Source: Vulcanimicrobiota bacterium (GTDB taxonomy: Bacteria > Vulcanimicrobiota > Vulcanimicrobiia > Vulcanimicrobiales > Vulcanimicrobiaceae). Taken from it: 64,000 nt of DNA. The stretch lies in assembly GCA_963820825.1 (NCBI GenBank), contig CAWGBN010000008.1, positions 416,001 to 480,000 on the forward strand, written 5' to 3'. Each line of letters starts with the position of its first letter. The first letter of the stretch is position 1. Positions 7,395 to 57,981 of this stretch are shown piece after piece. The notes under the pieces were generated by a model. The model made no database searches and had not been told where the DNA came from. It worked only from the letters and a program-made list of their open reading frames with translations. A program made the translations under genes and the position numbers.

Positions 7395-7426
7395 ACTCTA
7401 CGGGGCTCCTGCGAAAGTAATGCGAA
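7395..7426 (-). promoter_or_regulatory. TTC direct-repeat promoter, leaderless (BON-adh)
   Basis: TTCGC-N6-TTCGC-N10-TAGAGT-N6-ATG. Confidence 0.75.
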
Positions 7427-7432
7427 GAGAAG

Positions 7433-7464
7433 CTCATCGGTTCTTCACAGGAGAGGCATAGGGT
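7433..7464 (+). promoter_or_regulatory. TTC direct-repeat promoter, leaderless (HPF/RaiA gene)
   Basis: CTCAT-N6-TTCAC-N10-TAGGGT-N7-ATG. Confidence 0.6.
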
Positions 7465-7471
7465 TCACGTT

Positions 7472-7852
7472 ATGAGCGTTCCGGTACAAGTCACCTTCCG
7501 CGGCGTCGATCCATCGGACGCGCTGAGCGAGCTCATCGACAAAGAGGCCGCTAAGCTCGAGGCAATTTTCGCCCGAATCATCCGCTGCCACGTCACCGTC
7601 GAGAAGGTGGAGCGACACCTGCGCAACGGCGCGCCGTTCCAAGTCCGCATCGATTTGACCGTTCCCGGTGCAGAACTCGCGATCGACACGGCTCGAAGCC
7701 TTCGGGCTCCGGCCACCGACGACGAGACGCCGATGCGGCGCAAAAGCGCCGAAATCGACGCGATGCATAAAGACCCGGCACTGACGATTCGCGACGCCTT
7801 TCGCCGCGCGCGCCGGCGGCTGCAAGACTGGATCCGCCGCCGTCGGGAGTAG
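7472..7852 (+). CDS. HPF/RaiA (S30AE) ribosome-associated protein
   Basis: VQVTFRGVDPSDAL, IIRCHVTVE, VRIDLTVPG, IRDAFRRARRRL. Confidence 0.85.
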   Translation: MSVPVQVTFRGVDPSDALSELIDKEAAKLEAIFARIIRCHVTVEKVERHLRNGAPFQVRIDLTVPGAELAIDTARSLRAPATDDETPMRRKSAEIDAMHKDPALTIRDAFRRARRRLQDWIRRRRE

Positions 7853-11667: not shown

Positions 11668-11714
11668 ATTCGTTCTTCTAAAGTCGGGGAATCGGGAAGA
11701 ACTTGGGAACCAAC

Positions 11715-11746
11715 TTCACCACGCTTTCCACCTTTCGCGTTAGGCT
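11715..11746 (+). promoter_or_regulatory. TTC direct-repeat promoter, leaderless (hypothetical-PRTase-esterase operon)
   Basis: TTCAC-N6-TTCCA-N10-TAGGCT-N6-ATG. Confidence 0.75.
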
Positions 11747-11752
11747 TCGCTC

Positions 11753-12253
11753 ATGGAAGCGACAAAGACCGAGATCGACCGCCTGCTCGAACGCAGCGGC
11801 ATCGCACCCCTCGAGATCCACGGAACCGATTCAAGCGCGGCCGCGCGCGGCGGGCGCGAAGGAAACCTGTGCATCGTTCGCAGCGACGGGCGGGACATCG
11901 CCGTCCTTACGGTCGGGAACGGCCGAGCCGACGGTCCGGTGCCGCATAATCTGGCGGAGGCTCTAGCGATCGTGCAGATGCTGCGAGCAAAGGCCGCGAT
12001 CCCCGACGACGCCAGCTTCGAGCACATGCTCGGCGATCTGCTGGTAAAGGCGACGAAGCTCTTCGAAGAGAGCGGTGCAACGAAGTTTGAACTCGGATCG
12101 CTTCGGCTTCACCCAACGTCGTATCACGCCGGCAGCGCGACCTTGATCCACGACAAACCGCTGCACGTGGGCGCACGGCTGGAGCCGGATAGTCACGATC
12201 GGCGCGCCGTCTTCGATCACCGTCACGGTGACTCGATAAAGAATCCGAAGTAG
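11753..12253 (+). CDS. Hypothetical protein, possibly a degenerate ATP-grasp (ADP-forming acyl-CoA ligase beta-like) domain
   Basis: Leaderless start. Weak pattern LLERSGIAP ... LGDLLVK ... KFELGSLRL. Confidence 0.6.
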   Translation: MEATKTEIDRLLERSGIAPLEIHGTDSSAAARGGREGNLCIVRSDGRDIAVLTVGNGRADGPVPHNLAEALAIVQMLRAKAAIPDDASFEHMLGDLLVKATKLFEESGATKFELGSLRLHPTSYHAGSATLIHDKPLHVGARLEPDSHDRRAVFDHRHGDSIKNPK

Positions 12254-12262
12254 GGCGCAGAG

Positions 12263-12937
12263 ATGGATTCGATGCCACGCTTTACCGATCGAGCCGCTGC
12301 GGGCCGGCAGCTTGCCGAGCGCCTGCGAGAGTACGCGGGGCGCCGCGATCTGCTCGTGCTCGCGCTTCCTCGCGGCGGCGTGCCGGTGGGTTACGAAGTC
12401 GCCAAAGCGCTCGATGCTCCGCTCGACGTCTACATCGTGCGAAAGCTCGGCGTCCCCGGCCACGAGGAGGTGGCGATGGGAGCCGTCGCTTCGGACGGAA
12501 GCTACGTCGTGGACGGCGGCATGATCGACGCGTGCGGCGTCTCGCTCAAAGACTTTCAAGTCGAGCTCGTGCACGAATTCGGCGAGCTCAAGCGGCGCGA
12601 GGTTGCCTATCGCGACGATCGGCCCGAACCCGATCCCTTTGGGAAGACCGTCATCGTCGTCGACGACGGCCTGGCCACGGGAGCCTCGATGTACTCCGCC
12701 GTCTCGGCCTTGCGTCAGCGCGAGCCGGCCGCGATCGTCGTCGCGGTACCGGTCGCGCCGCCCGAGACGTGCCGGTCGCTCGAGCGGGTCGCCGACCGCG
12801 TCGTCTGCCCGAATCAACCCGAGCCCTTCGGCGCGGTCGGCTACTACTACGCCGATTTCCGGCAGCTGCACGATGAGGACGTGCGGCGTTTACTCGAGCT
12901 CGCGCAGCGGAACGGAGCGTCATGGAGAGTCGCGTAG
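12263..12937 (+). CDS. Phosphoribosyltransferase (Rv0571c/Rv2030c N-terminal type)
   Basis: FTDRAAAGRQLA, LALPRGGVPV, RKLGVPGHEE.AMGA, VIVVDDGLATG. Confidence 0.92.
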   Translation: MDSMPRFTDRAAAGRQLAERLREYAGRRDLLVLALPRGGVPVGYEVAKALDAPLDVYIVRKLGVPGHEEVAMGAVASDGSYVVDGGMIDACGVSLKDFQVELVHEFGELKRREVAYRDDRPEPDPFGKTVIVVDDGLATGASMYSAVSALRQREPAAIVVAVPVAPPETCRSLERVADRVVCPNQPEPFGAVGYYYADFRQLHDEDVRRLLELAQRNGASWRVA

Positions 12938-14259
12938 CCGTCGACCTCGCCCACGCGCTGATCCCGCTCGCGGGAGAGCGCCGCGAACACGATGCCCTCT
13001 TCGAGATGATCGGCGACGCGCCGGTGGTCTTGATCGGCGAGGCGACGCACGGGACGCACGAGTTTTACCGCATGCGCGCCGAACTGACCAAAAGGCTGAT
13101 CACCGAAAAAGGCTTCACCGCCGTCTGCATCGAGGGCGACTGGCCCGACGCCTATCGCGTGAACCGTTACGTACGCGGTGCGAACGACGATGCCGAGGCG
13201 GTCGACGCACTCGGCGGGTTCATCCGCTTTCCGACGTGGATGTGGCGCAATGCCGACGTGCTCGACTTCGTCGGCTGGCTGCGCGAGTATAACGACTTCT
13301 GCCAAACCAGCGTGCGTCCGAAGGCCGGCTTCTACGGACTCGATCTCTATAGCATGTACGCCTCGATCGACGCCGTCCTCGCCTACCTCGACCGCATCGA
13401 TCCGGCTGCGGCGGCATCGGCGCGCCGGCATTACGAATGCTTGGAGGTCTACGCCGAGCACCCCGAACGCTACGGGATGGCAGCGGCGCACGGGTTGGAA
13501 CCGCGCTGCCGAAGCGAAGTGATCTCCGCGCTGCTGGAGATCCAGCGCAAGGCGGCGCAGTATGCACGGCTCGACGGGCGCGTCGCCGAGGACCAATACT
13601 TCTACGCCGAGCAGAATGCGCGCATCGTCGCCAACGCAGAGCGCTACTATCGCGCGATGATCGATTACTCGGCATCGACGTGGAATCTGCGCGACGAGCA
13701 CATGGCCGATACGCTCGATCGATTGCTGCATCACCTTGCCGGCCGTCAGGGCAGCGCCAAAGCGGTGGTTTGGGCGCATAACTCGCACGTCGGCAGCGCC
13801 GACGCGACCTCGATGTCGCAGCGCGGCGAGACGAACATCGGCGCGTTGAAGCGGCGGCAGTACGGCGACGACTGCATCGCCGTTGGTTTCTCGACCTATA
13901 CCGGCACCGTTACCGCCGCCTCCGATTGGCACGAGCCCGAAGAACGCAAGCGCGTCCGTCCCGCCCGAAACGACAGCTTCGAGTACACGTTTCACGCGCT
14001 CGGGGTGCCGCGCTTCTGGGTTCCGCTCCGGCCTTATCGGCCGCAGCTCGATGGCCTTCCGGCGGAAGCGCTCGAACGCGCGATCGGCGTGATCTATCGT
14101 CCGGATACCGAACTCCAGAGCCACTACTTCACCGCGCGGCTCATCGACCAGTTCGACGCGATCTACCACTACGACGTCACGCGCGCCGTCCAGCCCTTGG
14201 AGCGCAGCCGGCTCTGGCTCGAGGGCGAACCCCCCGAAGCCTATCCGACCGGAGAATGA
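12922..14259 (+). CDS. Erythromycin esterase family protein (Rv2030c C-terminal type)
   Basis: IGEATHGTHEFY, EGDWPDA, FPTWMWRN, WNLRDEHM, WAHNSHVG, ERAIGVIYRP. Confidence 0.92.
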   Translation: MESRVAVDLAHALIPLAGERREHDALFEMIGDAPVVLIGEATHGTHEFYRMRAELTKRLITEKGFTAVCIEGDWPDAYRVNRYVRGANDDAEAVDALGGFIRFPTWMWRNADVLDFVGWLREYNDFCQTSVRPKAGFYGLDLYSMYASIDAVLAYLDRIDPAAAASARRHYECLEVYAEHPERYGMAAAHGLEPRCRSEVISALLEIQRKAAQYARLDGRVAEDQYFYAEQNARIVANAERYYRAMIDYSASTWNLRDEHMADTLDRLLHHLAGRQGSAKAVVWAHNSHVGSADATSMSQRGETNIGALKRRQYGDDCIAVGFSTYTGTVTAASDWHEPEERKRVRPARNDSFEYTFHALGVPRFWVPLRPYRPQLDGLPAEALERAIGVIYRPDTELQSHYFTARLIDQFDAIYHYDVTRAVQPLERSRLWLEGEPPEAYPTGE

Positions 14260-15553: not shown

Positions 15554-16009
15554 CTACGCCGCTTTTCTCTGCGCGGGCGGGTTTCGAACGATCAGTACGG
15601 GCACGCTCGACTCGCGCATGACGACTTCGGCGACGCTGCCCATGAGAAAATGCTGAAATCCGCGCCGGCCGTGCGTACCCATGACGATGAGGTCGGCACC
15701 GAGCCGTTCGGCATATTTGAGGAGCTCGAAGGCGGGTACGCCGGTGCGAATCTGCCCGGTGGCGGTGACGCCTTCCCGACAGGCCCGCTCGATCGCCTCG
15801 GTGACGGTCCGCCGCGCCGCAATCTCCATGTCGCGAACCACGATATCCATCGCCGGGCTCGGCGGAGAGGTGGCCGTGATCGCGATCGGATCGACGACGG
15901 AGCAGATGCCCAGCTCGGCCTTTTGGGCCTGCGCTAATCCCAGGGCAACCGAGAACGCCTTGGAGGCGGCTTCGGATCCGTCGAGCGCGACTGCAATCTT
16001 AGTGAACAT
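15554..16009 (-). CDS. Universal stress protein
   Basis: KIAVALDGSE, DLIVMGTHGRRG...GSVAE. Confidence 0.93.
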   Translation of the reverse strand: MFTKIAVALDGSEAASKAFSVALGLAQAQKAELGICSVVDPIAITATSPPSPAMDIVVRDMEIAARRTVTEAIERACREGVTATGQIRTGVPAFELLKYAERLGADLIVMGTHGRRGFQHFLMGSVAEVVMRESSVPVLIVRNPPAQRKAA

Positions 16010-16015
16010 GGGGCT

Positions 16016-16047
16016 AGCCTACGCTCGACTCTAGAATTCGTCGTGAA
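16016..16047 (-). promoter_or_regulatory. TTC direct-repeat promoter, leaderless (USP)
   Basis: TTCAC-N6-TTCTA-N10-TAGGCT-N6-ATG. Confidence 0.75.
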
Positions 16048-16064: not shown

Positions 16065-16107
16065 TTCACAATCGCTTCACGGGAGCGTAACCGGAAACGG
16101 CTATTAT
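16065..16107 (+). promoter_or_regulatory. TTC direct-repeat promoter, leaderless (MacAB-type operon)
   Basis: TTCAC-N6-TTCAC-N6-GTAAC-N10-TATTAT-N6-GTG, i.e. three repeats in 11-bp phase. Confidence 0.65.
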
Positions 16108-19448: not shown

Positions 19449-19489
19449 GCCGAATTGAGAAAAACTCGTGAAGCTTCTCCTATCCAGCG

Positions 19490-19521
19490 TTCACGGAGAA
19501 TTCCCGACGCTCTCGTAGGCT
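19490..19521 (+). promoter_or_regulatory. TTC direct-repeat promoter, leaderless (tandem USP)
   Basis: TTCAC-N6-TTCCC-N10-TAGGCT-N6-ATG. An inverted TTCAC-N6-TTCTC pair lies at 19457-19472. Confidence 0.75.
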
Positions 19522-19527
19522 AGAGTC

Positions 19528-20451
19528 ATGTTCACAAAGCTTTTGGTCGCCCTCGACGGCTCCCCGTGCGCCGAGCGCGCTTTCGAACTCGCGATGCGGC
19601 TCGCAAAGCTCGAAGGATCGAGACTCATTCTCTGCTCGGTCGCCGACCCGGCGCCGGTTTACGGCAGTCTCCAGCCCAACACCCTCATCGAGCATACGCT
19701 CGAGGAGATCCACCAGGAAGCCGAGCGCGTCGCCGGCGATGCCGCCGTTCGAGCGAAGGCCGCGGGCATCGTTGCCGAGGCGTGCGTCTTCGAAGGCGAA
19801 CCCGTCCATCAGATCGTTTCGCACGCCGCTGCGGCGCCGGTTGACGGAATCGTCATCGGCACGCACGGCCGCTCCGGATTCGCTCGCCTCTTTATGGGAA
19901 GCGTCGCCGAAGGCGTGCTCCGGGATGCGACGGTGCCGGTGATCGTCGTGCGGGCGGAGGCGAGCCTTGCGCCGCTTGCGCCCGACGCGACCTTCATCAC
20001 CCGAGTTCTCGTGCCTGTCGATGGCTCGGAGAACTCCCTGCGCGCAATCGACGTCGCCGTCGAGCTCGCCGCGAGCGCCGGCGCGGAAGTCGTCGTCGGT
20101 CACGCGATCAATCTCGGCGAGGCCGCGATGCTTAGCGGCGGTGAGGCGCAACTTCTGGCCGGCTGCCTAGAACTCGTCAAGGAGAAGGGCCAACACGTCC
20201 TCGCTGAAGCGCTCGCGCGCATCGGCAACCGCGTCCCCGCATCGTCTCAGATCGGCGAGGGCGAGCCGGTCGAGGCCATCGCGCAGCTCGTCGCGGAAGT
20301 CAAGCCGGAGTTCGTCGTCTGCGGAAGTCACGGACGCACGGGCTTGAACCGCGCGTTCATGGGCAGCGTCGCCGAGAGCGTGCTGCGCCACGCGCCGGTT
20401 CCCGTGATCGTCGTTCCGGCGAAGAGTATTAATAGTGTATCAGCGGCTTGA
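19528..20451 (+). CDS. Tandem-domain universal stress protein
   Basis: Two USP domains, each with DGS and G(T/S)HGR..GSVAE. Confidence 0.93.
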   Translation: MFTKLLVALDGSPCAERAFELAMRLAKLEGSRLILCSVADPAPVYGSLQPNTLIEHTLEEIHQEAERVAGDAAVRAKAAGIVAEACVFEGEPVHQIVSHAAAAPVDGIVIGTHGRSGFARLFMGSVAEGVLRDATVPVIVVRAEASLAPLAPDATFITRVLVPVDGSENSLRAIDVAVELAASAGAEVVVGHAINLGEAAMLSGGEAQLLAGCLELVKEKGQHVLAEALARIGNRVPASSQIGEGEPVEAIAQLVAEVKPEFVVCGSHGRTGLNRAFMGSVAESVLRHAPVPVIVVPAKSINSVSAA

Positions 20452-21063: not shown

Positions 21064-21765
21064 TTACGGGCGGCGGAGTTTGTAGCCGACGCCGTAGACG
21101 GTGACGACGTACGCCGGATTACGGTTGTCGGCTTCGATCTTTTTTCGCAGGTTGTTGATGTGACGGTCGAGCGTCCGTTCGTAGATCGTTCCGGAGTCCT
21201 GCAGACGATCGAGCATTACTGCACGCGTGAAGACTTCGCCGGGGCTGCTCGCCAGCACCGCGAGGATTCGAAACTCGGTTGCGGTGACGTTCGCCGTCCT
21301 TCCGCCGACGCGTATCTCGTGTGAGGCGAGGTCGATCTCCAGGTCGCCGATGCGCACGAGGTTTGCAGCACCAGGCTCCCCAGGCTTGTGCTCCTCGACA
21401 CGCCGCAGCAGCGCGCGAATGCGCGCCATCAACTCGCGCGGCGAGAACGGTTTGGTCATGTAGTCGTCGGCGCCGAGCTCCAGGCCGACGATGCGATCGG
21501 ACTCTTCGCCGCGTGCGGTGAGCATGATCGCCGGGACGCGCCGGCCGCTCGCCGCCGTTTCGCGCAGGACGTCGAGCCCGCTCCCGTCGGGCAAGCCGAC
21601 GTCGAGGATCATCATCTCGGGTTTCGACTCACGAATCAGCGCGAGTCGCCTCGCCACGGTCGTGCAGAGCGTCGTGATGCGAAACCGTCGCGGTCGCAGA
21701 TAGCTCTCGACGACTTCTGCGACTTTCGGCTCGTCCTCGACGACGAGGACGCGCTTGCCGTCCAT
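21064..21765 (-). CDS. OmpR/BaeR-family response regulator (compensating frameshifts near 21650-21695)
   Basis: VLVVEDE, ILDVGLPD, GLELGADDY.TKPFSPREL, RTLDRHINNLRKKIE, TVYGVGY. Confidence 0.92.
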   Translation of the reverse strand: MDGKRVLVVEDEPKVAEVVESYLRPRRFRITTLCTTVARRLALIRESKPEMMILDVGLPDGSGLDVLRETAASGRRVPAIMLTARGEESDRIVGLELGADDYMTKPFSPRELMARIRALLRRVEEHKPGEPGAANLVRIGDLEIDLASHEIRVGGRTANVTATEFRILAVLASSPGEVFTRAVMLDRLQDSGTIYERTLDRHINNLRKKIEADNRNPAYVVTVYGVGYKLRRP

Positions 21766-21770
21766 CGGTC

Positions 21771-23411
21771 TTACCAGGTTCGCATTCCCGGCGCGAGGTA
21801 TCCGGGATGGCGCAGAGTTCGCCGAGCGGCCCGGCGTACGCAAGGATCGCGAGCACGAGCGCGAGCGACGCCCCAGCGATAGAGGCTGCTGCAGCGGCCG
21901 CGGCGTCGTCACGCTCGCACTCGGCGGCGTTGCGAACACCACGTCGGGATCTGCGTCGGTTCTCGGTTCTTGACCAGCGTGCCGATCGCGACGGCGACGA
22001 ACGTACAGCGATGCTCAGGAAGAGGAAGAAACCGCCGGCCGCTGCGAGCAGCATGTACGGTTGCCAGGCGTTGGCCGCCGCGGCGCCCATGTAGTCGACT
22101 TCCGCGGTGCGCCGCGGCGCGCCGAGCAGGCCGGCGTAGTGCATCGAGAACGACATGATCAGCATGCCGAAGAACCAGAGACGCGTCTGAAAGAGCGCCC
22201 ACTCCGGCTTCCAGAGCGCGCGGCCGGTCAGCCGCGGAATCAGCCAGTAGGCGGCACCGAGGAACGTCAGCGCGACCGGGCCGCCGACGGTTACGTGAAA
22301 GTGACCGACGATCCAGATCGTGTTGTGCACGACCGTATCCATGCTGTACGACGCGTTGACCAGACCGCCGAAGCCGCCCAGGATGAAGAGGATCATGCCC
22401 AGCGCCGCACCGCTGAAGGTCGGGTCGTTCCAGGGCAGCGCCTTGACCGTGCCGATGAATCCGCGGCGTCCCTGTTTGATCGCGAAGAGCTCGAACGACG
22501 CGAAGATCGCAAAGGCGGTGATGAACGACGGAATCGCGACGCCGTACGTCGTGATCGTGTGCAGCATCTTCCAAACCGACGAGATGCCCGGCTCCATGAA
22601 CTCGTGATGGATGCCGACCGGCGTCGAGAGCAGGATCAGCATGATGAAGGTCAGCCGCGTCAGCGCGTCGCTAAAGACGTTTCCGCCGTAGCGCGTCGGA
22701 ATGATGTTATACCAAATGATGTAGGCGCCCATGATCCAGAAGTAGACCAGCGGATGGCCGAAGTACCAGAAGAACATCCGCGTCAGCATGACGTTGATGC
22801 CGGAGGTCCAGCCGAAGGCCCACGGGATCAGAAGGACCATCTCGGCGACGACGCCGAGCGTCGCGACGATCCACATGACGAACGTCGCGGCGGCGCAAAA
22901 GACGACGAGCGGAACCGGCTTGCCGGGATTCGTGCTTCCGGAAATAGTTGACGTTGGCGAAGATCTCGAAGGCGACGACCCAGGTGCCCAGCACCAGCAG
23001 CGTCGCGCCGACGTAGAACCACGGACTCGCTTTGAGCGGCGCGTAGAACGTGTAGAGCACGGTCGCGTCGCCCTTGAGGATCGTGACCGCGGCCATCGCG
23101 GTGCCGAGCAGCATGAGCCACCAGCCGAACCATCCGACGGCGAGGCTGCGCGTCGCGCGGTATCGCGCGGTAGGTTACGAAGAGCGATAGCCCGGTGATG
23201 AAGAACGTCGTGAAGACGAGCGCCATCAGCACGCCGTGCATCGTGAGCATGCGATAGTAGTCGAACCAACGCCGGCGCGCCGAAGGCGCCGGTGCGCGAA
23301 AATCCTTGAAAGACGCCGAAGATCGCGCCCGAGCGCGATCGCCGCCGTCGCGGTATAGATGTGCGCGATGATGACGCGGTTCTCGTTGCGAACTGCGTCT
23401 GACCCGGTCAC
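21771..23411 (-). CDS. cbaA: Cytochrome ba3-type (B-family) heme-copper oxidase subunit I, several frameshifts
   Basis: YYRMLTMHGVLMALVFTTFFI, VLYTFYAPL, FWYFGHPLVYFW, GIHHEF, HNTIWIVGHFH, GAPRRT. Confidence 0.92.
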
Positions 23412-23881
23412 TTATTTCACCTCGATCTTGGCAAACATGTTCTGATGGCCGAGTCCCGCAGTATTCGTGGCAGAGCAGTAGGTAGTCACCGGCGTGCGTG
23501 AACGTGTGCGTCTCCTCGTTCACCCAGCCGGGAACGACCATCATGTTGATGTCGGTTCGGGAATGAAGAAGCCGTGGACGACGTCCGCGCTCGTGACGTA
23601 GAACGTCACCCTGCTTCCGACCGGAACGTGCAGATCGGCCGGGTCGAATTCGAAGACGCGCGCGACGTAGTAGGCCTCGTACGATCCGTCCGCGCGCCGG
23701 TGCAGCCCGGGCTTGTCGAACGGCGGCGTCTGAGCGACCTTCGTGGGATCGATCTGCTGCATATCCGATGGGCGGATTGATGTTGTCGGCAAAGGCCGCA
23801 AAGGCGATCAACCCTAGGAAAAATGACGAGCATCCCCACGCCGAAGGTCAGCCACCAGCGTTCGTATCGGTGAATCTGCAT
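23412..23881 (-). CDS. cbaB: ba3-type oxidase subunit II (CuA), frameshifted
   Basis: MQIHRYERWW, IDP, TSADVVHGF, NMMVVPG, CHEYCG..HQNM. Confidence 0.9.
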
Positions 23882-23882
23882 C

Positions 23883-23997
23883 TTACCAGCGCACCCGCAG
23901 CAAGCACGTACATCGCGAACCAGAGAACCAGGAACGTCGCGCCCATTACAAAGACGAAGCGCAGCGTTCCGATGAGGGGAGCTTCTTCGTCTTTCAT
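23883..23997 (-). CDS. ba3-type oxidase small subunit IIa (about 37 aa, one frameshift)
   Basis: MKDEEAPLIGTLRFVFVMGATFLVLWFAMY: single TM helix directly before subunit II. Confidence 0.75.
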
Positions 23998-24464
23998 GAG
24001 CTCGTCGCACTCGATTTCGACTGCTCGTCGCGCAGGTAGGCCGTTTCGAGCTCGGAAGCGATCCGCTCCAGCAACGCCTGCGCGGTTACGGTTGCGATGC
24101 GACGGCCGATCGTGGCGTCGAAGGCCGCGCCCAGCACGCCGCCCGGGGGACGGTACGATCCCCGGAGCTCGAGCTGCGACGTCTCGTAGTTTTCGTCGGC
24201 GCGCACGGTCAGCTCGCCGTCGAACTCCGGATAGGGTCCCGCTTTCGGCTTCCAGTGCAGCCGCCACGGTTGGTCGAAATGCATCGGATCGTTCGCGGCG
24301 TCGTAGGTAACGACCACCTCGCGCACCAGATCCGCGCCCGGGAGCGCGGCGGTGAGGGTCAGCGTCCCGGGCGCACCGGTGCGAGCGGCGACAGCGCGCG
24401 CGAGATGACGCTGCGCGAGATGGTAGGGGCAGCGGACAATGCGCCGTTCCAGAAGCTCTGACAT
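23994..24464 (-). CDS. Hypothetical protein (possible SRPBCC-like fold), first gene of the ba3 operon
   Basis: W.P....P.F.G.L.V, L.GSY.PP.G..G..FDA.IG.RIA shared with 27461..27910. Confidence 0.75.
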   Translation of the reverse strand: MSELLERRIVRCPYHLAQRHLARAVAARTGAPGTLTLTAALPGADLVREVVVTYDAANDPMHFDQPWRLHWKPKAGPYPEFDGELTVRADENYETSQLELRGSYRPPGGVLGAAFDATIGRRIATVTAQALLERIASELETAYLRDEQSKSSATSS

Positions 24465-24470
24465 GGCCTC

Positions 24471-24502
24471 ATCCTAGCCATCACCTGCGAAGAACTATCG
24501 AA
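24471..24502 (-). promoter_or_regulatory. TTC direct-repeat promoter, leaderless (ba3 oxidase-response regulator operon)
   Basis: TTCGA-N6-TTCGC-N10-TAGGAT-N6-ATG. An inverted TTCCC-N6-TTCAC pair lies at 24510-24525. Confidence 0.75.
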
Positions 24503-24547
24503 TGGCGCCTTCCCAACTAATTCACAATTCGCAGGGCCAACCGCGAG

Positions 24548-25246
24548 CTAGGGTCTCTTCATTTTATAGCCGACGCCGTAGACGGTCACGATGTACTCGG
24601 GATTGCGCGGGTCCTTCTCGACCTTCTTGCGCAGGTTGTTGATGTGCCGGTCGAGCGTCCGCTCGTAGATCTCACCGTCGTCGCCGAGGCGGTCGAGCAG
24701 ATGCGAGCGGGTGAAGACCTCCCCCGGATTCTCCGCCAAGAGGGTAACGATCTTGAACTCGGTCGCCGTTAGATTCGCCGGCGCTCCGGCGACGCTGACC
24801 TCGTGAAAGTTGTGGTCGATCTCGAGCTCGCCGATGCGCGTTCGCCGGTTATTCTTGTGGCCGGTGGTCTGCTCTTCGGCCGTTCGGCGCAGGAGCGCGC
24901 GCACGCGCGCCACCACCTCGCGCGGCGAGAACGGCTTGGAGACGTAATCGTCGGCGCCGAGTTCCAAGCCGACGACCCGATCGGCTTCGTCGGAACGCGC
25001 GGTGAGCATGATCGTCGGAACGCGCGCGTTGGGCACCGAGACCGACCGAAGCACGTCGAGCCCGCTGCCGTCGGGCAGCGTGATGTCGAGCACGAGGACG
25101 TCGGGCGTGGAGCGCGCGATCGCCGCCGTCGCTTCGGCGACGTTCCCGCAGACGTCCACGATCATCCCCTCGCGCTCGAGATAGGCCTTGAGTACCTCGG
25201 CAATCTGCGGCTCGTCGTCGACCAGCAGAACCCGGCGTCGCTCCAT
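24548..25246 (-). CDS. OmpR/BaeR-family response regulator
   Basis: VLLVDDE, VLDITLPD, GADDYVSKPFSPREV, RTLDRHINNLRKKVE. ATG overlaps the upstream stop (TGATG). Confidence 0.94.
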   Translation of the reverse strand: MERRRVLLVDDEPQIAEVLKAYLEREGMIVDVCGNVAEATAAIARSTPDVLVLDITLPDGSGLDVLRSVSVPNARVPTIMLTARSDEADRVVGLELGADDYVSKPFSPREVVARVRALLRRTAEEQTTGHKNNRRTRIGELEIDHNFHEVSVAGAPANLTATEFKIVTLLAENPGEVFTRSHLLDRLGDDGEIYERTLDRHINNLRKKVEKDPRNPEYIVTVYGVGYKMKRP

Positions 25247-25422
25247 CAGAGCCCGTCCTGCCCCTGCAAGAGGTCGCGGGCTCCGCGCAGCGCGTCGGCG
25301 ACAGCCTCGAGCCGCGCCGGCGTCGGTGCGACCAGACCGTCGGCCATTCCCTCCACGTTGGCCAGAGCGACGGCTAACAGATTGCCGAGCTCGTGGCGAA
25401 CCGTCTCGCGACCCTCCTTCAT
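25246..25422 (-). CDS. Stand-alone HisKA/DHp mini-protein (58 aa), absent from the ORF track
   Basis: MKEGRETVRHELGNLLAVALANVEGMADGLVAPTPARLEAVADALRGARDLLQGQDGL: H-box plus BaeS-like E...DG...TP..L. Stop overlaps the RR start. Confidence 0.75.
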   Translation of the reverse strand: MKEGRETVRHELGNLLAVALANVEGMADGLVAPTPARLEAVADALRGARDLLQGQDGL

Positions 25423-25505
25423 TCTTTATTGGTAATCCGAGATTGGGCGGCTCGGGCCCTATCGAAACGGAGCCGCCAGCGGCAGAGCGAAGACCCGAGA
25501 AGTTC

Positions 25506-26651
25506 ATGGATGAGTCACTCTTTTCGCTCCGGGATATTGCGGGGAGCAGGTTCCCGCTGCTCGAGCACGCTCCGGACGCGACGATCATCGTCGACGGCGA
25601 GGGGATCATCCAGCTGGTCAACGCGCAGACCGAGCGGCTCTTCGGCTACTATCGCGAGGAGCTCATCGGCCAGGCCATCGAGATGCTCATCCCCAAGCGG
25701 TTCCACTCCCGGCACGTCGTGGAGCGAAAGGAGTACGCGTCCGAGCCGCGCGTCCGGCCGATGGGCGTCGGCCTCGAGCTCTTCGGCCTGCGCAAGGACG
25801 GCAGCGAGTTCCCGGTCGAGATCAGCTTGAGTCCGATCGCCACGCGCGAGGGGACCTTTATCGCCGGCGCGATTCGCGACGTGACCGAGCGCAAGGCGTT
25901 CGAAGCGCGCCTGCAGAGCCTCAATGCAGAGCTCGAGAAGGCGAGTCGCGCAAAAGACCAGTTCCTCGCCTCGATGAGCCACGAGCTGCGTACGCCGCTC
26001 AACGCCATTCTCGGCTTCACCGGAACCCTGCTCATGAAACTTCCGGGACCCCTCAACGAAGAGCAGGAGCGTCAGCTTCAAATCGTTCAATGGAGCGCCC
26101 GCCATCTGCTCTCGCTGATCAACGATATTCTCGATTTGGCCAAGGTGCAATCGGGAAAGCGCGAGCTTACCTACGAGCGAGTTCCGGTCAAAGAGGTGGT
26201 GGGAGACGTTGCCGCCTCGCTGGCATCGCTGGCCGAAGAGAAGGGTCTTGCATTCTCCCATGCCGTTGCGCCCAGCGCGGAGTTCGTTACGACCGACCGC
26301 CGCAGTCTGCGTCAGATCCTGCTGAACCTTACGCAGAATGCGATCAAGTTTACGGAACGCGGCGTCGTGCGAATCGACGTCAGCGCCGTCACGCGCAATG
26401 GGAGCGCGCGGCTCGCCATGAGCGTGATCGACACCGGCATCGGTATCAAGGGTGAGGACCTCGCACGCCTCTTCGAAGCCTTCGAACAGCTCGCCACGTC
26501 GAACGAGCGGCGTTTCGAAGGTACGGGGCTCGGACTTCATCTCTCGCGCACCCTCGCCGAACTTCTCGAGGGCGAGTTAACCGTTGCGAGCGAGCACGGG
26601 AAGGGGAGCACGTTTACGCTGACCTTGCCCCTGGCCGGCGCCGAGGGATAA
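25506..26651 (+). CDS. Cytoplasmic PAS (FixL-like) sensor histidine kinase
   Basis: PAS LIPKRFHSRH...RKDGSEFPVEISLS, H-box SHELRTPL, NAIKFT, DTGIGI, GTGLGL; no TM segment. Confidence 0.92.
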   Translation: MDESLFSLRDIAGSRFPLLEHAPDATIIVDGEGIIQLVNAQTERLFGYYREELIGQAIEMLIPKRFHSRHVVERKEYASEPRVRPMGVGLELFGLRKDGSEFPVEISLSPIATREGTFIAGAIRDVTERKAFEARLQSLNAELEKASRAKDQFLASMSHELRTPLNAILGFTGTLLMKLPGPLNEEQERQLQIVQWSARHLLSLINDILDLAKVQSGKRELTYERVPVKEVVGDVAASLASLAEEKGLAFSHAVAPSAEFVTTDRRSLRQILLNLTQNAIKFTERGVVRIDVSAVTRNGSARLAMSVIDTGIGIKGEDLARLFEAFEQLATSNERRFEGTGLGLHLSRTLAELLEGELTVASEHGKGSTFTLTLPLAGAEG

Positions 26652-27023
26652 GTGGTGCGAATCCTCGTTATCGACGACAATCCTGCGAATCTCGACCTGA
26701 TGCTCTACCTGCTGCGTGCTTTCGGCCACGAGGTCGAAGCGGCCGCCGACGGTCTCGCCGGATACGAAGCGCTCCAGCGCGATGGCTACGACCTCGTGTT
26801 GACCGATATTCTCATGCCGGGGATCGACGGTTATGAATTCGTGCGCCGCGTGAAGAGCGACGCTCGCTTCGCGTCGACGCCGGTCGTCGCGGTAACGGCG
26901 TTGGCGATGGACGCCGATCGCGCGCGAGTCGGTGCAGCCGGCTTCGACGGCTATATCACCAAGCCGATCGACCCCCAGCACTTCGTCGGCGAAATCGAGT
27001 CCTTTTTGGCGGGCCGCTTCTAG
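26652..27023 (+). CDS. Single-domain response regulator (DivK-like)
   Basis: VIDDN, LTDILMPG, AVTALAM, GFDGYITKPID. Confidence 0.9.
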   Translation: MVRILVIDDNPANLDLMLYLLRAFGHEVEAAADGLAGYEALQRDGYDLVLTDILMPGIDGYEFVRRVKSDARFASTPVVAVTALAMDADRARVGAAGFDGYITKPIDPQHFVGEIESFLAGRF

Positions 27024-27029
27024 CGACCG

Positions 27030-27398
27030 ATGGCGACCGTGCTCGTTGCCGACGACGATCGCCACACGCGCTTTCTCGTCAAGACCGTCCTCACGCACGT
27101 CGGGCACACCGTGATCGAGGCCGCCGACGGCGCCGACGCACTCACGCGTGCCCGCACCGAGACGCCCGACCTGATCCTGCTCGATCTTTCGATGCCGGGG
27201 ATGAGCGGCCCCGAATTTATCCGCGCGCTCCGCGCCGATCCGCGCACGCAGCCGACCAAAGTCGCCCTCTACACCGCGACGCCGTTGAACGCCGCGCTTC
27301 GCGATTTCATGGAGATCTACGGAATCGAACACGTCGTGCCCAAACCGGCCGAGCCCGCGCAACTGATCGAGGCAATAGAACGCGCCCTCTCCGGGTAA
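27030..27398 (+). CDS. Single-domain response regulator
   Basis: VADDD, LLDLSMPG, YTA, KP. Confidence 0.88.
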   Translation: MATVLVADDDRHTRFLVKTVLTHVGHTVIEAADGADALTRARTETPDLILLDLSMPGMSGPEFIRALRADPRTQPTKVALYTATPLNAALRDFMEIYGIEHVVPKPAEPAQLIEAIERALSG

Positions 27399-27422
27399 AC
27401 AAAGAAGTGATGGGAACGCACG

Positions 27423-27454
27423 TTCGCCGGTTCTTCTCATTAAATTGGTAGATT
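27423..27454 (+). promoter_or_regulatory. TTC direct-repeat promoter, leaderless
   Basis: TTCGC-N6-TTCTC-N10-TAGATT-N6-ATG. Confidence 0.75.
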
Positions 27455-27460
27455 GATCGC

Positions 27461-27910
27461 ATGCCGCGGTTAAGTGATAGGACCGCGATCGATTGTTCCG
27501 TGGAGCAAGCGTCGAAGGGGATCGATTGCTTTTTAGATTCGCTCAAAGGGAGAGACGGAGTCGCGCGTCTTCGCCTGCGCGTTCCCGCCGACGGACCGAT
27601 GCTCGGTATCGCGATCGACCGAGAGGTTCGGATCGAGGTGCGTCCGCCATCTGAGGTCGGCGGGGCTATGGCGATGGGTTGGAAGCCCGAGGGAACGGTC
27701 GCTCTTCCAACGTTCGAGGGGACGCTCGTTGCACAGAGCGACGGAGATCCGAATGTAACGTACCTCGACCTCGACGGCTCCTACACGCCGCCTTTCGGCG
27801 CGGCGGGACAACTCTTCGACGCGGCCATCGGCAAACGCATCGCGCAAGCGACGGCGCGCGAGTTTCTCAAAGACCTCAAGGCCGCAATCGAAAAATCCCT
27901 GTCATCCTGA
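27461..27910 (+). CDS. Hypothetical protein, paralog of 23994..24464
   Basis: WKPEG..LPTFEGTL, LDGSYTPPFGAAG.LFDAAIGKRIA. Confidence 0.75.
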   Translation: MPRLSDRTAIDCSVEQASKGIDCFLDSLKGRDGVARLRLRVPADGPMLGIAIDREVRIEVRPPSEVGGAMAMGWKPEGTVALPTFEGTLVAQSDGDPNVTYLDLDGSYTPPFGAAGQLFDAAIGKRIAQATAREFLKDLKAAIEKSLSS

Positions 27911-27960
27911 CACTTCGGCTCGGCGCGAAGCGAAACTCGCTCAGGACCGCGCTTCGCGCG
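27900..27960. repeat. REP-like palindromic element between convergent genes
   Basis: GTCATCCTGA...GCTCAGGAC plus CGCGAAGCG/CGCTTCGCG. Related termini at 39240 and 39663-39677. Confidence 0.55.
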
Positions 27961-40991: not shown

Positions 40992-48100
<7,109 letters not shown>

Positions 48101-48195: not shown

Positions 48196-49694
48196 ATGGT
48201 GCGCTCGCTCGACGCTCGGCCGAGCGCGGCTCGACCGCGTCCTCGCGTGCTGGTGCGAGCGGGCCGCGCGTTGACGCTCTCGCCGATCTGCACCAAGCTC
48301 TTACGCAGATCGCCGCAATCGGTCGTTGCGCGATTTCGGCGGACCACTGCGCGATCGAGATCGCCACCCCCGAGACGGCCTCGCATTCGCGCGAGGCCGG
48401 CGCGTGCCGGGCGACGAGCGGTGACTCGATCGTGAAGAGCCGCTCAGCGACGGCCGCGATACCCTCGGCACGATTACCTGCGCGAGTCGGCATCGGCGAA
48501 CGGCTACGACGAGGCCGCGCGTAAAGCGCTGAAAATCCTCGCCACGGAGCTCGGCATCGTCATCGCGAGCCAAGCATTGACGCGGCGCGAGCACCGCGTC
48601 GCCGACCGGCTCCAGCGCGCGCTGCTCCCCGAGCACCTTCCCGAGATTCCCGGTGCCGAGTTTCACGCCTCCTACCGCCCGGCGAGCGACGAAGCCGAGG
48701 TCGGCGGCGATTGGTTCGATGCGTTCCACTCTTCCCGACCGGCGCGTCGCCGATCTCGGTCGGCGACGTCGCCGGCCACGGATTCGAAGCGGCGGTCATT
48801 ATGGGTGAGGTGCGCCAAGCGATCCGCACCGCCGCGGTCGCCGCGCAGAGTCCGGCGGCGGTGCTCGATTACGTCAACCGGATCATCGGCTTGCGCGAGC
48901 CGGTCGAAATCGTAACGGCGATCTTCGGAATCTACGATCCCGAGACGAGCACGCTGACCTACGCCTCCGCCGGACACCCGCCGCCGCTCTTTGCGCTGGC
49001 AAACGGCTTGGTGCGACGGCTTCCGTCGGGGAGTCTCCCGCTCGGCTGCGTGGAGTCGCTGGGAAGCCGCGATTGGACGGTGACGCTCCCGGCGGGTTCG
49101 CAAGTAGTCTTCTACACCGACGGGCTGATCGAAAACGAACGCGACCTGATCGCCGGCGAGAAGCGGCTCGTCGACGCGGTTAAGGCGTTAACCCTGGAAC
49201 GCCGCGTCGCTGGGGCCGTCTGCGGCGATCCCGCGCTCGCGGTCGAAGAACGAATCTTCAACGGCGCTTCGAATCGCGACGACGCGGCGGTGCTCGTTCT
49301 CTGTCGTGAAGCACCCATTTCGCGTTACGTTTTCTCGGCAGTGGATACCGTCGCGCCGATCGCGCGCGCGATCATCGGTGACGACCTCGACGGGCTGGGT
49401 ATCGATGACGAGCGGCGCTTCGGCGTACTCGTCGCCGTCGGCGAAGCAGTTGCCAATGCGGTGGAGCACGCCTATCGCGGCGGCGACCCGGGATTGATCC
49501 GCTTCGAGATGGCGCGCGAAGAGGGTCTCTTCGTCGTGACCGTTGAGGACTTCGGACGATGGAGACCCTTCGTGCGCCGCGAGGAGCGCGGCCGAGGTAT
49601 CGAACTGATGCACGCGTTCATGGACGGCGTGCAGATCCACTCCACGCACGAATCGACTCGAATCGTGCTGAAGGCGCAGCTAGCCGGCGCTTAG
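48196..49694 (+). CDS. Sensor-SpoIIE/PP2C phosphatase fused to an RsbW-type HATPase, frameshifts in the N-terminal part
   Basis: GGAGG RBS, LQRALLP, EVGGDWFD, VGDVAGHG, AGHPPP, YTDGLIE, DDAAVL, then EAVANAVEHAY, VEDFGRW, RGRGI. Confidence 0.88.
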
Positions 49695-57545: not shown

Positions 57546-57577
57546 ATGGTATCCGATACTTGGGAAGCACCCGGGAA
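57546..57577 (-). promoter_or_regulatory. TTC direct-repeat promoter (hydrolase)
   Basis: TTCCC-N6-TTCCC-N10-TACCAT-N8-GTG. Confidence 0.75.
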
Positions 57578-57621: not shown

Positions 57622-57981
57622 ATGGAAAGACGGTATGCGGCGATTGACGGCGCGGCCCCGGTATCGGTATTGCGGCTGATCGAGGTCTCGCCCGACGATT
57701 TCGAACGCCTTTACGGCGAGATCGCGAGCTTCATGAACGGTCCCGGCGCGGAATTGCCGGGCCTCATCGAGACGCAACTCTTCGGCAGCGTGGATCGTAC
57801 GCGAATTGCAATCCTCGTGCACTTCCGCTCGCACCGCGACTGGGTACACGCGCAGTGGGACGTGCGGCTCGGCGAACTCCTCGAAGAGATCGTCACCAAC
57901 TCGGCGGCGATCGACTTCAATCTCTACCGCACCGACCGGTTCCCAACGGAGACCACGAAGCAGGGTATCGCGCAGAGCTGA
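57622..57981 (+). CDS. ABM (antibiotic biosynthesis monooxygenase)-like dimeric alpha/beta barrel protein
   Basis: LPGLIETQLFGSVDRTRI pattern; about 120 aa. Confidence 0.6.
   Translation: MERRYAAIDGAAPVSVLRLIEVSPDDFERLYGEIASFMNGPGAELPGLIETQLFGSVDRTRIAILVHFRSHRDWVHAQWDVRLGELLEEIVTNSAAIDFNLYRTDRFPTETTKQGIAQS

Follow-up and report, generated by a model that had tools for sequence, protein, structure and literature searches.

A pair of divergent operons in an uncultured Vulcanimicrobiota bacterium encodes a 58-residue helical hairpin protein, here called mini-DHp, that is by sequence homologous to the dimerization and histidine phosphotransfer (DHp) domain of CA-bearing histidine kinases and itself has neither a CA domain nor a sensor domain. 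We favor the reading that mini-DHp is the remnant of the short cytoplasmic kinase that belonged to its neighboring response regulator, RR2, after loss of the N-terminal domain (N-domain) and the ATP-binding CA domain. The full mechanism that we propose, to which we give a probability of about 55%, would run from a PAS kinase to a receiver, to His10 of mini-DHp, to RR2 and its paralog RR1, and so to the repeat-bearing promoters of a low-oxygen- or dormancy-type gene island. All of these genes lie in the window, the 64,000-nt stretch of DNA analyzed here (contig CAWGBN010000008.1 of GenBank assembly GCA_963820825.1, positions 416,001 to 480,000 of the forward strand), which comes from a metagenome-assembled genome of 2.98 Mb in 9 contigs with 85% completeness.

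Genes were called from a listing of open reading frames (ORFs) and Pfam matches, with start codons set partly from ortholog N termini. The two operons diverge from an 83-nt intergenic region (25423 to 25505) with the genus-conserved blocks TAATCCGCGA and GCCCTAYCG, as judged by eye from 15 loci. On the minus strand, the order from this region is mini-DHp (25246 to 25422; H-box RHELGN; alignments and AlphaFold2 [AF2]), RR2 (24548 to 25246; 232 amino acids [aa]), P156, a small hydrophobic ORF, oxidase subunits II and I, and, as the last gene, RR1 (21064 to 21765; 233 aa). Both regulators are of the OmpR family by Pfam (REC plus Trans_reg_C). The plus strand carries a soluble PAS-HisKA-HATPase_c kinase of 381 aa with its PAS domain directly N-terminal (25506 to 26651; Pfam and ortholog starts), the single-domain receivers REC1 (26652 to 27023, directly after the kinase stop) and REC2 (27030 to 27398), and P149. 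By Pfam and PDB matches, REC1 is DivK/PleD-like, and the PDB matches of REC2 include PleD, CheY, and Spo0F. The initial annotation had proposed an oxygen-sensing phosphorelay made of a FixL-like PAS kinase, two receivers, a mini-DHp, and twin OmpR-type regulators, and all five gene types were present where it had placed them, according to the ORF listing and Pfam; it was silent on the oxidase and on the two SRPBCC-fold genes (P156 and P149), which also belong to the cluster.

The evidence that carries our reading comes from a census in which one genome per species was scanned for the DHp signature, yielding 80 loci that were classed by tblastn with flanks of about 3 kb. Loss of the CA domain was associated with adjacency to the PAS-kinase operon: the PAS kinase lay beside the DHp in 43 of the 47 CA-less loci and in 0 of the 33 CA-bearing loci. 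The four CA-less loci left over comprised two that were cut by contig ends and two with only a REC2-like gene beside the DHp, and in the one genome of these two that was checked, the PAS kinase was found 11 kb off. In L071/L106 and L123, the sole partner beside the DHp is a REC2-like gene. Where the kinase was adjacent (43 CA-less loci), the gene next after the DHp was a regulator in 24, an SRPBCC gene in 5, and something else in 14. The route through mini-DHp suggested by the initial annotation draws its support from comparative genomics (CA loss in the company of the kinase at 43/47 loci versus 0/33). Its further suggestion, a linked set of five genes, stood for the core of kinase operon and mini-DHp, which is kept in 43 loci, and did not extend to the whole set, since all five genes were adjacent in just 21 of the 80 loci. 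In a first sample, 11 same-genus genomes had a close ortholog of the kinase, and 8 of them retained the complete cluster. Relatives at the level of the class carry kinase-REC1-(REC)-REC2 alone, with an intact pair of RR2 and kinase elsewhere in the genome. In L131 and L133, RR2 is followed by a CA-less DHp, which is the order of the ancestral pair; the kinase-REC1-REC2 operon there runs toward this pair from the other side, and the end of REC2 lies only about 48 nt from the DHp match.

The likely source of the hairpin is visible in other genera. A mini-DHp profile search across the class, covering 385 genomes (five of them flagged as unpublished), matched 248, and in many genera, the match lay within open frames of 240 to 650 aa. 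In nine of 16 loci fetched from other genera, a kinase of 234 to 290 aa comes after the RR2 ortholog; it is made up of a helical N-domain of about 60 aa, the same DHp (RHE[IL]GNALSIAQANVEG..DG), and a normal HATPase_c domain. Mini-DHp is 47 to 59% identical to the DHp segment of these short kinases, and the long homologs carry PF02518. The 120 longer homologs listed comprise about 90 with a CA domain, 26 with N-DHp or DHp only, and 4 fusions of DHp to an SRPBCC protein. An intermediate form occurs at L071, where the N-domain and DHp run in frame into an SRPBCC protein. Clusters P0144, P0145, P0152, and others (177 to 178 aa) consist of N-DHp plus about 60 C-terminal residues and have no CA and no Pfam domain. 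In the genome of the window (85% complete), neither an orphan CA domain nor a full-length counterpart of the short kinase was found. A 139-aa frame on contig C7 that matches a CA domain was rejected as a split partner, as it belongs to a frameshift-broken GAF-type kinase. RR1 and RR2 are 60% identical, with a near-identical recognition-helix region, and three loci from "FW021" bins (L135, L138, and L139) have two tandem pairs of OmpR regulator and N-DHp-CA kinase with universal stress protein (USP) genes between them. These tandem pairs suggest that a two-component pair was duplicated and gave rise to RR1 and RR2.

Mini-DHp is under purifying selection, with a median ratio of nonsynonymous to synonymous substitution rates (dN/dS) of 0.11 over a 43-codon core (26 of 36 pairs were usable, the other 10 being saturated at synonymous sites). 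It is present in 9/9 same-genus loci aligned, with 23 invariant columns that include R9-H10-E11-L12 and N14. Its TGA stop overlaps the ATG of RR2 in the window, and the gap between the two genes is 0 to 4 nt in 7/8 relatives. Searching 5.8 billion proteins with a profile gave 265 small homologs at E ≤ 1e-3, called independently by several sources; the 120 that were listed are 51 to 102 aa long (median, 58), have no Pfam domain, and are, where named, nearly all called "hypothetical protein," and 120/120 keep the His within H-[E/D/Q]-x-x-N. The AF2 model is a helical hairpin (helices at residues 2 to 27 and 35 to 56; pLDDT, 92). Mini-DHp is not an Hpt domain, having no match to PF01627. A profile search of the PDB gave the H-box region of AdeS as the best match, which was not significant (E, 0.14), and phrase searches for stand-alone DHp proteins found no paper on a natural DHp-only protein. 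Frame-broken genes do occur in the assembly, and no family library names mini-DHp, both of which would suit an alternative in which the divergent operons are unrelated neighbors in a stress island and mini-DHp is a decaying fragment. We consider this very improbable in view of the low dN/dS, the 265 small homologs, the invariant H-box, the translational coupling to RR2, and the pairing with the kinase operon in 43/47 CA-less loci.

At the head of the proposed relay, the kinase matches HisKA (E, 5e-22) and HATPase_c (E, 2e-28) in Pfam. Its PAS domain, in which both motifs cited by the initial annotation (LIPKRFHSRH and RKDGSEFP) were located, is closest by phmmer to the PDB entries of BjFixL (E, 1e-20), 10jx (3e-19), RmFixL (4e-16), and E. 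coli DosP (3e-11). The 14 best PDB matches are all heme-PAS domains (FixL or DosP), in addition to 10jx, an unannotated multisensor kinase entry whose cofactor is not annotated; the next class is LOV domains, from 1e-5. His70 (codon 25713 to 25715) aligns with the His of the SRHD motif of BjFixL and with the proximal His of DosP (ungapped over 112 residues in the case of DosP), which we take to be His200 and His77, respectively. Heme binding by the PAS domain is plausible on these grounds. The domain shares with FixL of Bradyrhizobium and Sinorhizobium the order PAS-HisKA-HATPase, the nearest solved PAS structure, and the proximal His, and to this extent, the description of the domain as a FixL-like heme PAS stood. 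It differs from FixL/FixJ in having Leu at the position of Arg220, and the operons encode single receivers and OmpR-type (Trans_reg_C) regulators rather than a LuxR/NarL-type FixJ. Because the Arg position is Leu and the partners are not of the FixJ type, the kinase does not form a FixL system, and there is no support for an O2 switch of the FixL kind. The comparison with DosP is similar: the ungapped alignment sets His70 on the proximal His, whereas the Met and Arg of DosP are replaced by Val88 and Leu90. A different candidate ligand, Met86 of an RPMG motif, is kept in 21/22 orthologs and lies 16 residues after His70. The same spacing (spacing alone was compared, without alignment) occurs in FG214, a heme-PAS protein of Fimbriimonas, for which a preprint describes a proximal His156 and, sixteen residues on, Met172 as a possible alternative distal ligand (bioRxiv 10.64898/2026.03.15.711900). 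The outputs of DosP and FG214 are a phosphodiesterase or a helix-turn-helix domain, and here, the output is a kinase. For the signal perceived by the PAS domain, redox state, NO, and CO are equally possible.

The receivers have complete acceptor pockets. The acceptor residues D9, D52, T82, and K104 of REC1 are invariant in 19 orthologs, as are D8, D9, D52, and K105 of REC2, with T82 of REC2 nearly so. No Hpt domain scored above the Pfam cutoff in the genome of the window (85% complete) or in any of 41 congeneric genomes (at least 90% complete in 40 cases), in a search that found the domain in 9/14 known genomes used as positive controls. Because the receiver pockets are complete and invariant and no Hpt was found, we favor a path from kinase to receiver to mini-DHp to RR2, and REC2 is the tentative shuttle, given that a REC2-like gene has remained next to the DHp where the kinase has not. 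A FATGUY motif, described as a mark of intermediary receivers (PMC9981736), was not found by eye in REC1 (VVAVTALAM) or REC2 (ALYTATP), and the criterion was of no help in choosing between them. A predicted complex of two copies of mini-DHp with REC2 scored 0.25 against a mark of 0.32, which speaks neither for nor against binding.

In the mechanism that we propose, the PAS kinase would probably bind heme through His70, possibly with Met86 as the second ligand, and would sense gas or redox state, not necessarily O2. It would autophosphorylate and then pass the phosphoryl group to REC1, REC2, or both, and a receiver would in turn phosphorylate His10 of mini-DHp, which would serve as a minimal Spo0B/ChpT-like phosphotransferase. 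From His10, the phosphoryl group would pass to the translationally coupled RR2 and probably also to its paralog, RR1. The phosphorylated regulator would bind an 11-bp-spaced repeat (YYGNGAA-N4-HYGNGAA) and turn on leaderless promoters, the proposed targets being the ba3 oxidase/SRPBCC operon, USPs, a ribosome hibernation factor, and other genes of the island. As for its origin, the kinase of RR2 would have dropped its ATP-binding domain once a neighboring source of phosphoryl groups existed, retaining the part that carries the phospho-His and recognizes RR2. We infer all of the phosphotransfer steps from comparisons of genes and proteins, along with the identity of the shuttle, the regulator that binds the repeat, the binding of heme, and the nature of the signal.

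Two other arrangements of the same parts have to be weighed. The H-E-x-x-N motif that is invariant in mini-DHp is linked to phosphatase activity in HisKA kinases, and it is possible to picture the PAS kinase phosphorylating RR2 and RR1 directly, with mini-DHp as a phosphatase, docking, or insulating partner of RR2 and the receivers as sinks or separate outputs. Such an arrangement accounts equally well for the association between CA loss and PAS-kinase adjacency, and class-level relatives do have the kinase-REC operon without a mini-DHp. However, the phospho-accepting His is kept in every one of the 120 small homologs listed, and phosphatase activity is not strictly dependent on this His. Moreover, the H-box regions of the kinase and mini-DHp differ at most post-His positions, so that a common regulator specificity is not evident, and the receivers encoded with the kinase always number two or three. 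We therefore regard direct phosphorylation of the regulators as unlikely, if still deserving of serious attention. The association with CA loss would also fit a split kinase, in which the PAS kinase lends its CA domain for phosphorylation of the mini-DHp His in trans and the phosphoryl group then passes to RR2, leaving the receivers off the path; work on EnvZ is reported to show that separated DHp and CA domains can complement each other in vitro. Yet the PAS kinase owns a DHp with an intact H-box, and L071/L106 and L123 keep a REC2-like receiver, with the kinase at a distance in the genome checked, which makes a split kinase improbable in our judgment.

Several observations weigh against the relay from kinase through receiver and mini-DHp to RR2. 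Because the genomes are related, the count of 43 versus 0 overstates the number of independent events, and RR2 does not adjoin mini-DHp in 14 CA-less loci. The receivers have, or had, another role, since the kinase-REC operon of class-level relatives stands apart from an intact RR2 kinase. Mini-DHp itself matches Pfam HisKA (PF00512) below the curated cutoff: five of nine members matched at E ≤ 10, with values of 0.006 to 0.05, and the window protein scored 14.2 bits against a cutoff of 26.9. A Foldseek search with the mini-DHp model returned nothing at E ≤ 0.001, its top rows being the DHp domains of HK853, SrrB, and PhoR. In the sensor, His70 is kept in 21/22 orthologs and is Gln in one, and Leu90 is invariant in the aligned orthologs at the position of FixL Arg220 and DosP Arg97, the former of which is the distal Arg of BjFixL that contacts bound O2. 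At the DNA end of the relay, a strict form of the promoter pattern (repeat, 25 to 50 nt, TAnnnT, 5 to 8 nt, and ATG/GTG), built from the genome of the window, found seven matches in three of five genomes of relatives and none in the other two, and only three of these were near the cluster; because it transfers so poorly, the pattern is overfitted to the genome of the window. Lastly, a LuxR-type regulator is encoded in the window as well, and the repeat has no direct tie to either RR1 or RR2.

The promoter motif is conserved, and it is clustered in the genome of the window. What the initial annotation had called TTC boxes is a conserved, locally enriched direct repeat with 11-bp spacing. In the 83-nt promoter region of the P156-oxidase operon (24465 to 24547, minus strand; alignment and pattern searches), blocks are invariant in 7/7 genomes aligned. 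The elements follow in the order TTGTGAA-N4-TTGGGAA (24527 to 24510; TTC boxes when read on the plus strand), a TTCGAnAGTTCTTCG box (TTCGATAGTTCTTCG, 24502 to 24488), a −10-like TAGGAT (24476 to 24471), and, 6 nt on, the ATG. The promoter of P149 (within 27399 to 27460, plus strand) has a TTCGCCGGTTCTTC box, 12 nt, TAGATT, 6 nt, and ATG. The box TTCGnnnGTTCTTC is common to the P156 (24488 to 24502, minus strand) and P149 (about 27412 to 27427, plus strand) promoters, 12 nt upstream of the −10 element, at the place of a −35 element. With up to two mismatches, the repeat occurs six times in the window against 1.66 expected, a count that 0 of 100 shuffles reached. On its own, the repeat motif has 8 of its 29 genome matches in this 65 kb against 0.63 expected. 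The composite pattern, which is the strict form given above, has eight matches in the genome, seven of them within C8:415578-473560, and ten simulated genomes gave 0 to 1. Among the 17 loci scanned in relatives, the motif was found upstream of P156 orthologs in three and of the P149 ortholog in one (L021). Two identical 76-nt pattern matches lying far apart in the genome of one relative (G071:C1:1715332-1715407 and 2386826-2386901) are presumably a repeated element that does not belong to the regulon. An 11-bp spacing suits winged-helix dimers of the OmpR/PhoB type, and RR1 and RR2 fit as candidate binders of the repeat.

Further promoters with the repeat motif were located by pattern search across the window. 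They precede the gene for a ribosome hibernation factor (Ribosomal_S30AE; gene at 7472 to 7852, motif at 7409 to 7426, plus strand), an ORF at 11753 to 12253 (motif at 11692 to 11709, plus strand), a USP gene at 15554 to 16009 (motif at 16065 to 16082, minus strand), a tandem-USP gene at 19528 to 20451 (motif at 19455 to 19472, plus strand), and an ORF of no known family at 57622 to 57981 (motif at 57560 to 57577, plus strand). The ORF at 11753 is followed by a phosphoribosyltransferase gene and then an erythromycin-esterase-family gene (12263 to 14259, plus strand). A gene for a PEP-utilizing enzyme also lies behind a composite promoter. At 24465 to 24476, 27449 to 27460, 19516 to 19527, 16010 to 16021, 11741 to 11752, and 7459 to 7471, TAGGNT or TAGATT −10-like hexamers stand 5 to 8 nt before the starts of genes, and because genes start so soon after such a hexamer, the transcripts of the island are probably leaderless.

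The gene content of the island resembles that of the mycobacterial DosR regulon. The island combines several USPs, an Hsp20/alpha-crystallin, a ribosome hibernation factor, a terminal oxidase, and genes of the phosphoribosyltransferase and erythromycin-esterase-like kinds, and a protein of the mycobacterial DosR regulon carries phosphoribosyltransferase and erythromycin-esterase domains fused. Other genes of the window encode a hemerythrin, a triple-BON protein, a Zn-dependent alcohol dehydrogenase, a pyrophosphatase, Hsp20, and a TMEM175-like channel. A grouping of this kind has a parallel in the lxa locus, described as holding six USPs and an alpha-crystallin and as induced by low oxygen (PMC3721108). 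The island differs from the DosR system in its control genes, which are here a PAS kinase, receivers, mini-DHp, and OmpR-type regulators, with no NarL-type regulator and no GAF-heme kinase. DosS and DosT sense through heme-GAF domains, and DosR is of the NarL type. Because a distal Arg, a FixJ/NarL-type regulator, and a GAF sensor were not found, the system falls outside both the FixL and the DosR classes. The idea of a hypoxia switch built from different parts, put forward in the initial annotation, is borne out as regards parts that differ from those of the DosR and FixL systems, and a role in hypoxia is a reasonable hypothesis; a look for public sequencing runs over 23900 to 27950 listed none. 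On balance, the cluster is best explained as a module controlling a gene island of the dormancy or low-oxygen type. The window also contains a second signaling cluster, with a fusion of a SpoIIE-type phosphatase and HATPase_c_2 (anti-sigma-kinase-like; 48711 to 49694, plus strand), a six-HAMP array protein (44439 to 46409), and a two-REC protein (41967 to 43091).

The oxidase of the minus-strand operon (21766 to 23881; COX1 Pfam matches in two frames) is a ba3-type (B-family) heme-copper oxidase, with Thermus ba3 oxidase 1ehk as its best solved relative (E, 5e-84). Its subunits I and II are read in three frames (21629 to 23881, minus strand), with one break at a run of T near 23820, and orthologs of subunit I are 91 to 95% identical. 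An unrelated GAF-type kinase and its LuxR-type regulator on contig C7 (L078; G000:C7:209500-214500) likewise fall into two or three frames. Because the C7 kinase is broken in the same way, we take the oxidase breaks as likely assembly indel errors and not true pseudogenes, and caution therefore applies to other apparent pseudogenes in this genome. The 49-aa hydrophobic ORF (23848 to 23997, minus strand; read from the sequence), whose ATG overlaps the P156 stop (ATGA), is possibly ba3 subunit IIa.

One SRPBCC paralog closes each divergent operon: P156 (23994 to 24464, minus strand) and P149 (gene at 27461 to 27910, plus strand, within a segment from 27399 whose preceding part holds its own promoter), 29% identical to each other. 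The P149 gene of one relative (L016) has an internal stop, and its row was left out of the alignment. Neither paralog has a Pfam match; the SRPBCC/START fold was assigned from AF2 (pLDDT, 86) and Foldseek, with matches to the ARO/CYC protein ZhuI (E, 3e-5), TTHA0849, and CoxG of M. smegmatis. The fold is thus likened to that of the quinone-carrying CoxG. In-frame fusions of DHp and SRPBCC occur in at least four protein clusters and at L071 (L071:4934-5731), as if the SRPBCC domain had taken the place of the CA domain. From these natural fusions, we speculate that an SRPBCC ligand-binding protein may act on mini-DHp.

As proposed, the relay resembles Spo0F-Spo0B-Spo0A of Bacillus and CckA-ChpT-CtrA of Caulobacter, in which the order of parts is likewise a kinase, a receiver (stand-alone or intermediate), a DHp-like helical hairpin bearing a His, and a DNA-binding regulator. 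The literature (PMC9981736, PMC3433190, and PMC5898713) treats Spo0B, ChpT, and PhyT as phosphotransferases derived from kinases, and the known ones keep a degenerate CA-like domain (PMC3433190). The family described here differs from Spo0B and ChpT in being a bare hairpin of 50 to 60 aa and in having CA-bearing and intermediate forms still present in sister genera. It also recalls the BaeS/AdeS-type HisKA kinases with OmpR partners, by the AdeS pattern HEL...GxIDGv (that same match of E 0.14, not significant) and because some sources name long relatives BaeS; it differs from them in lacking a transmembrane/HAMP part and, in the Cybelea group, a CA domain.

Phosphorelays are thought to arise from simple kinase-regulator pairs. 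Spo0B, ChpT, and PhyT are old, and we know of no surviving intermediates between them and such pairs. The class studied here has members with the CA-bearing ancestor type, members with partial forms, and members with the bare hairpin. A broader interpretation, which we hold tentatively and at somewhat less than even odds, is that this previously unnamed DHp-only family of Eremiobacterota is the smallest natural histidine phosphotransferase and that it arose when the kinase partner of an OmpR regulator lost both its N-domain and its CA domain, following the arrival of a heme-PAS kinase/receiver operon next to it. Full kinase, N-DHp, DHp-SRPBCC, and bare DHp, all of which survive, would then show a two-component pair turning into a four-step phosphorelay, into which the SRPBCC proteins may feed a second signal (quinone or lipid). 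Since CA loss tracks one event, the adjacency of the PAS kinase/receiver operon, the origin of a relay may become testable with a few small soluble proteins, and if our reading is true, mini-DHp would show how small a working His-phosphotransfer protein can be. Eremiobacterota are an abundant, uncultured phylum of soil and peat, and the scheme presented here, from sensor and relay to DNA motif and regulon, would be the first regulatory model for their dormancy-type genes.

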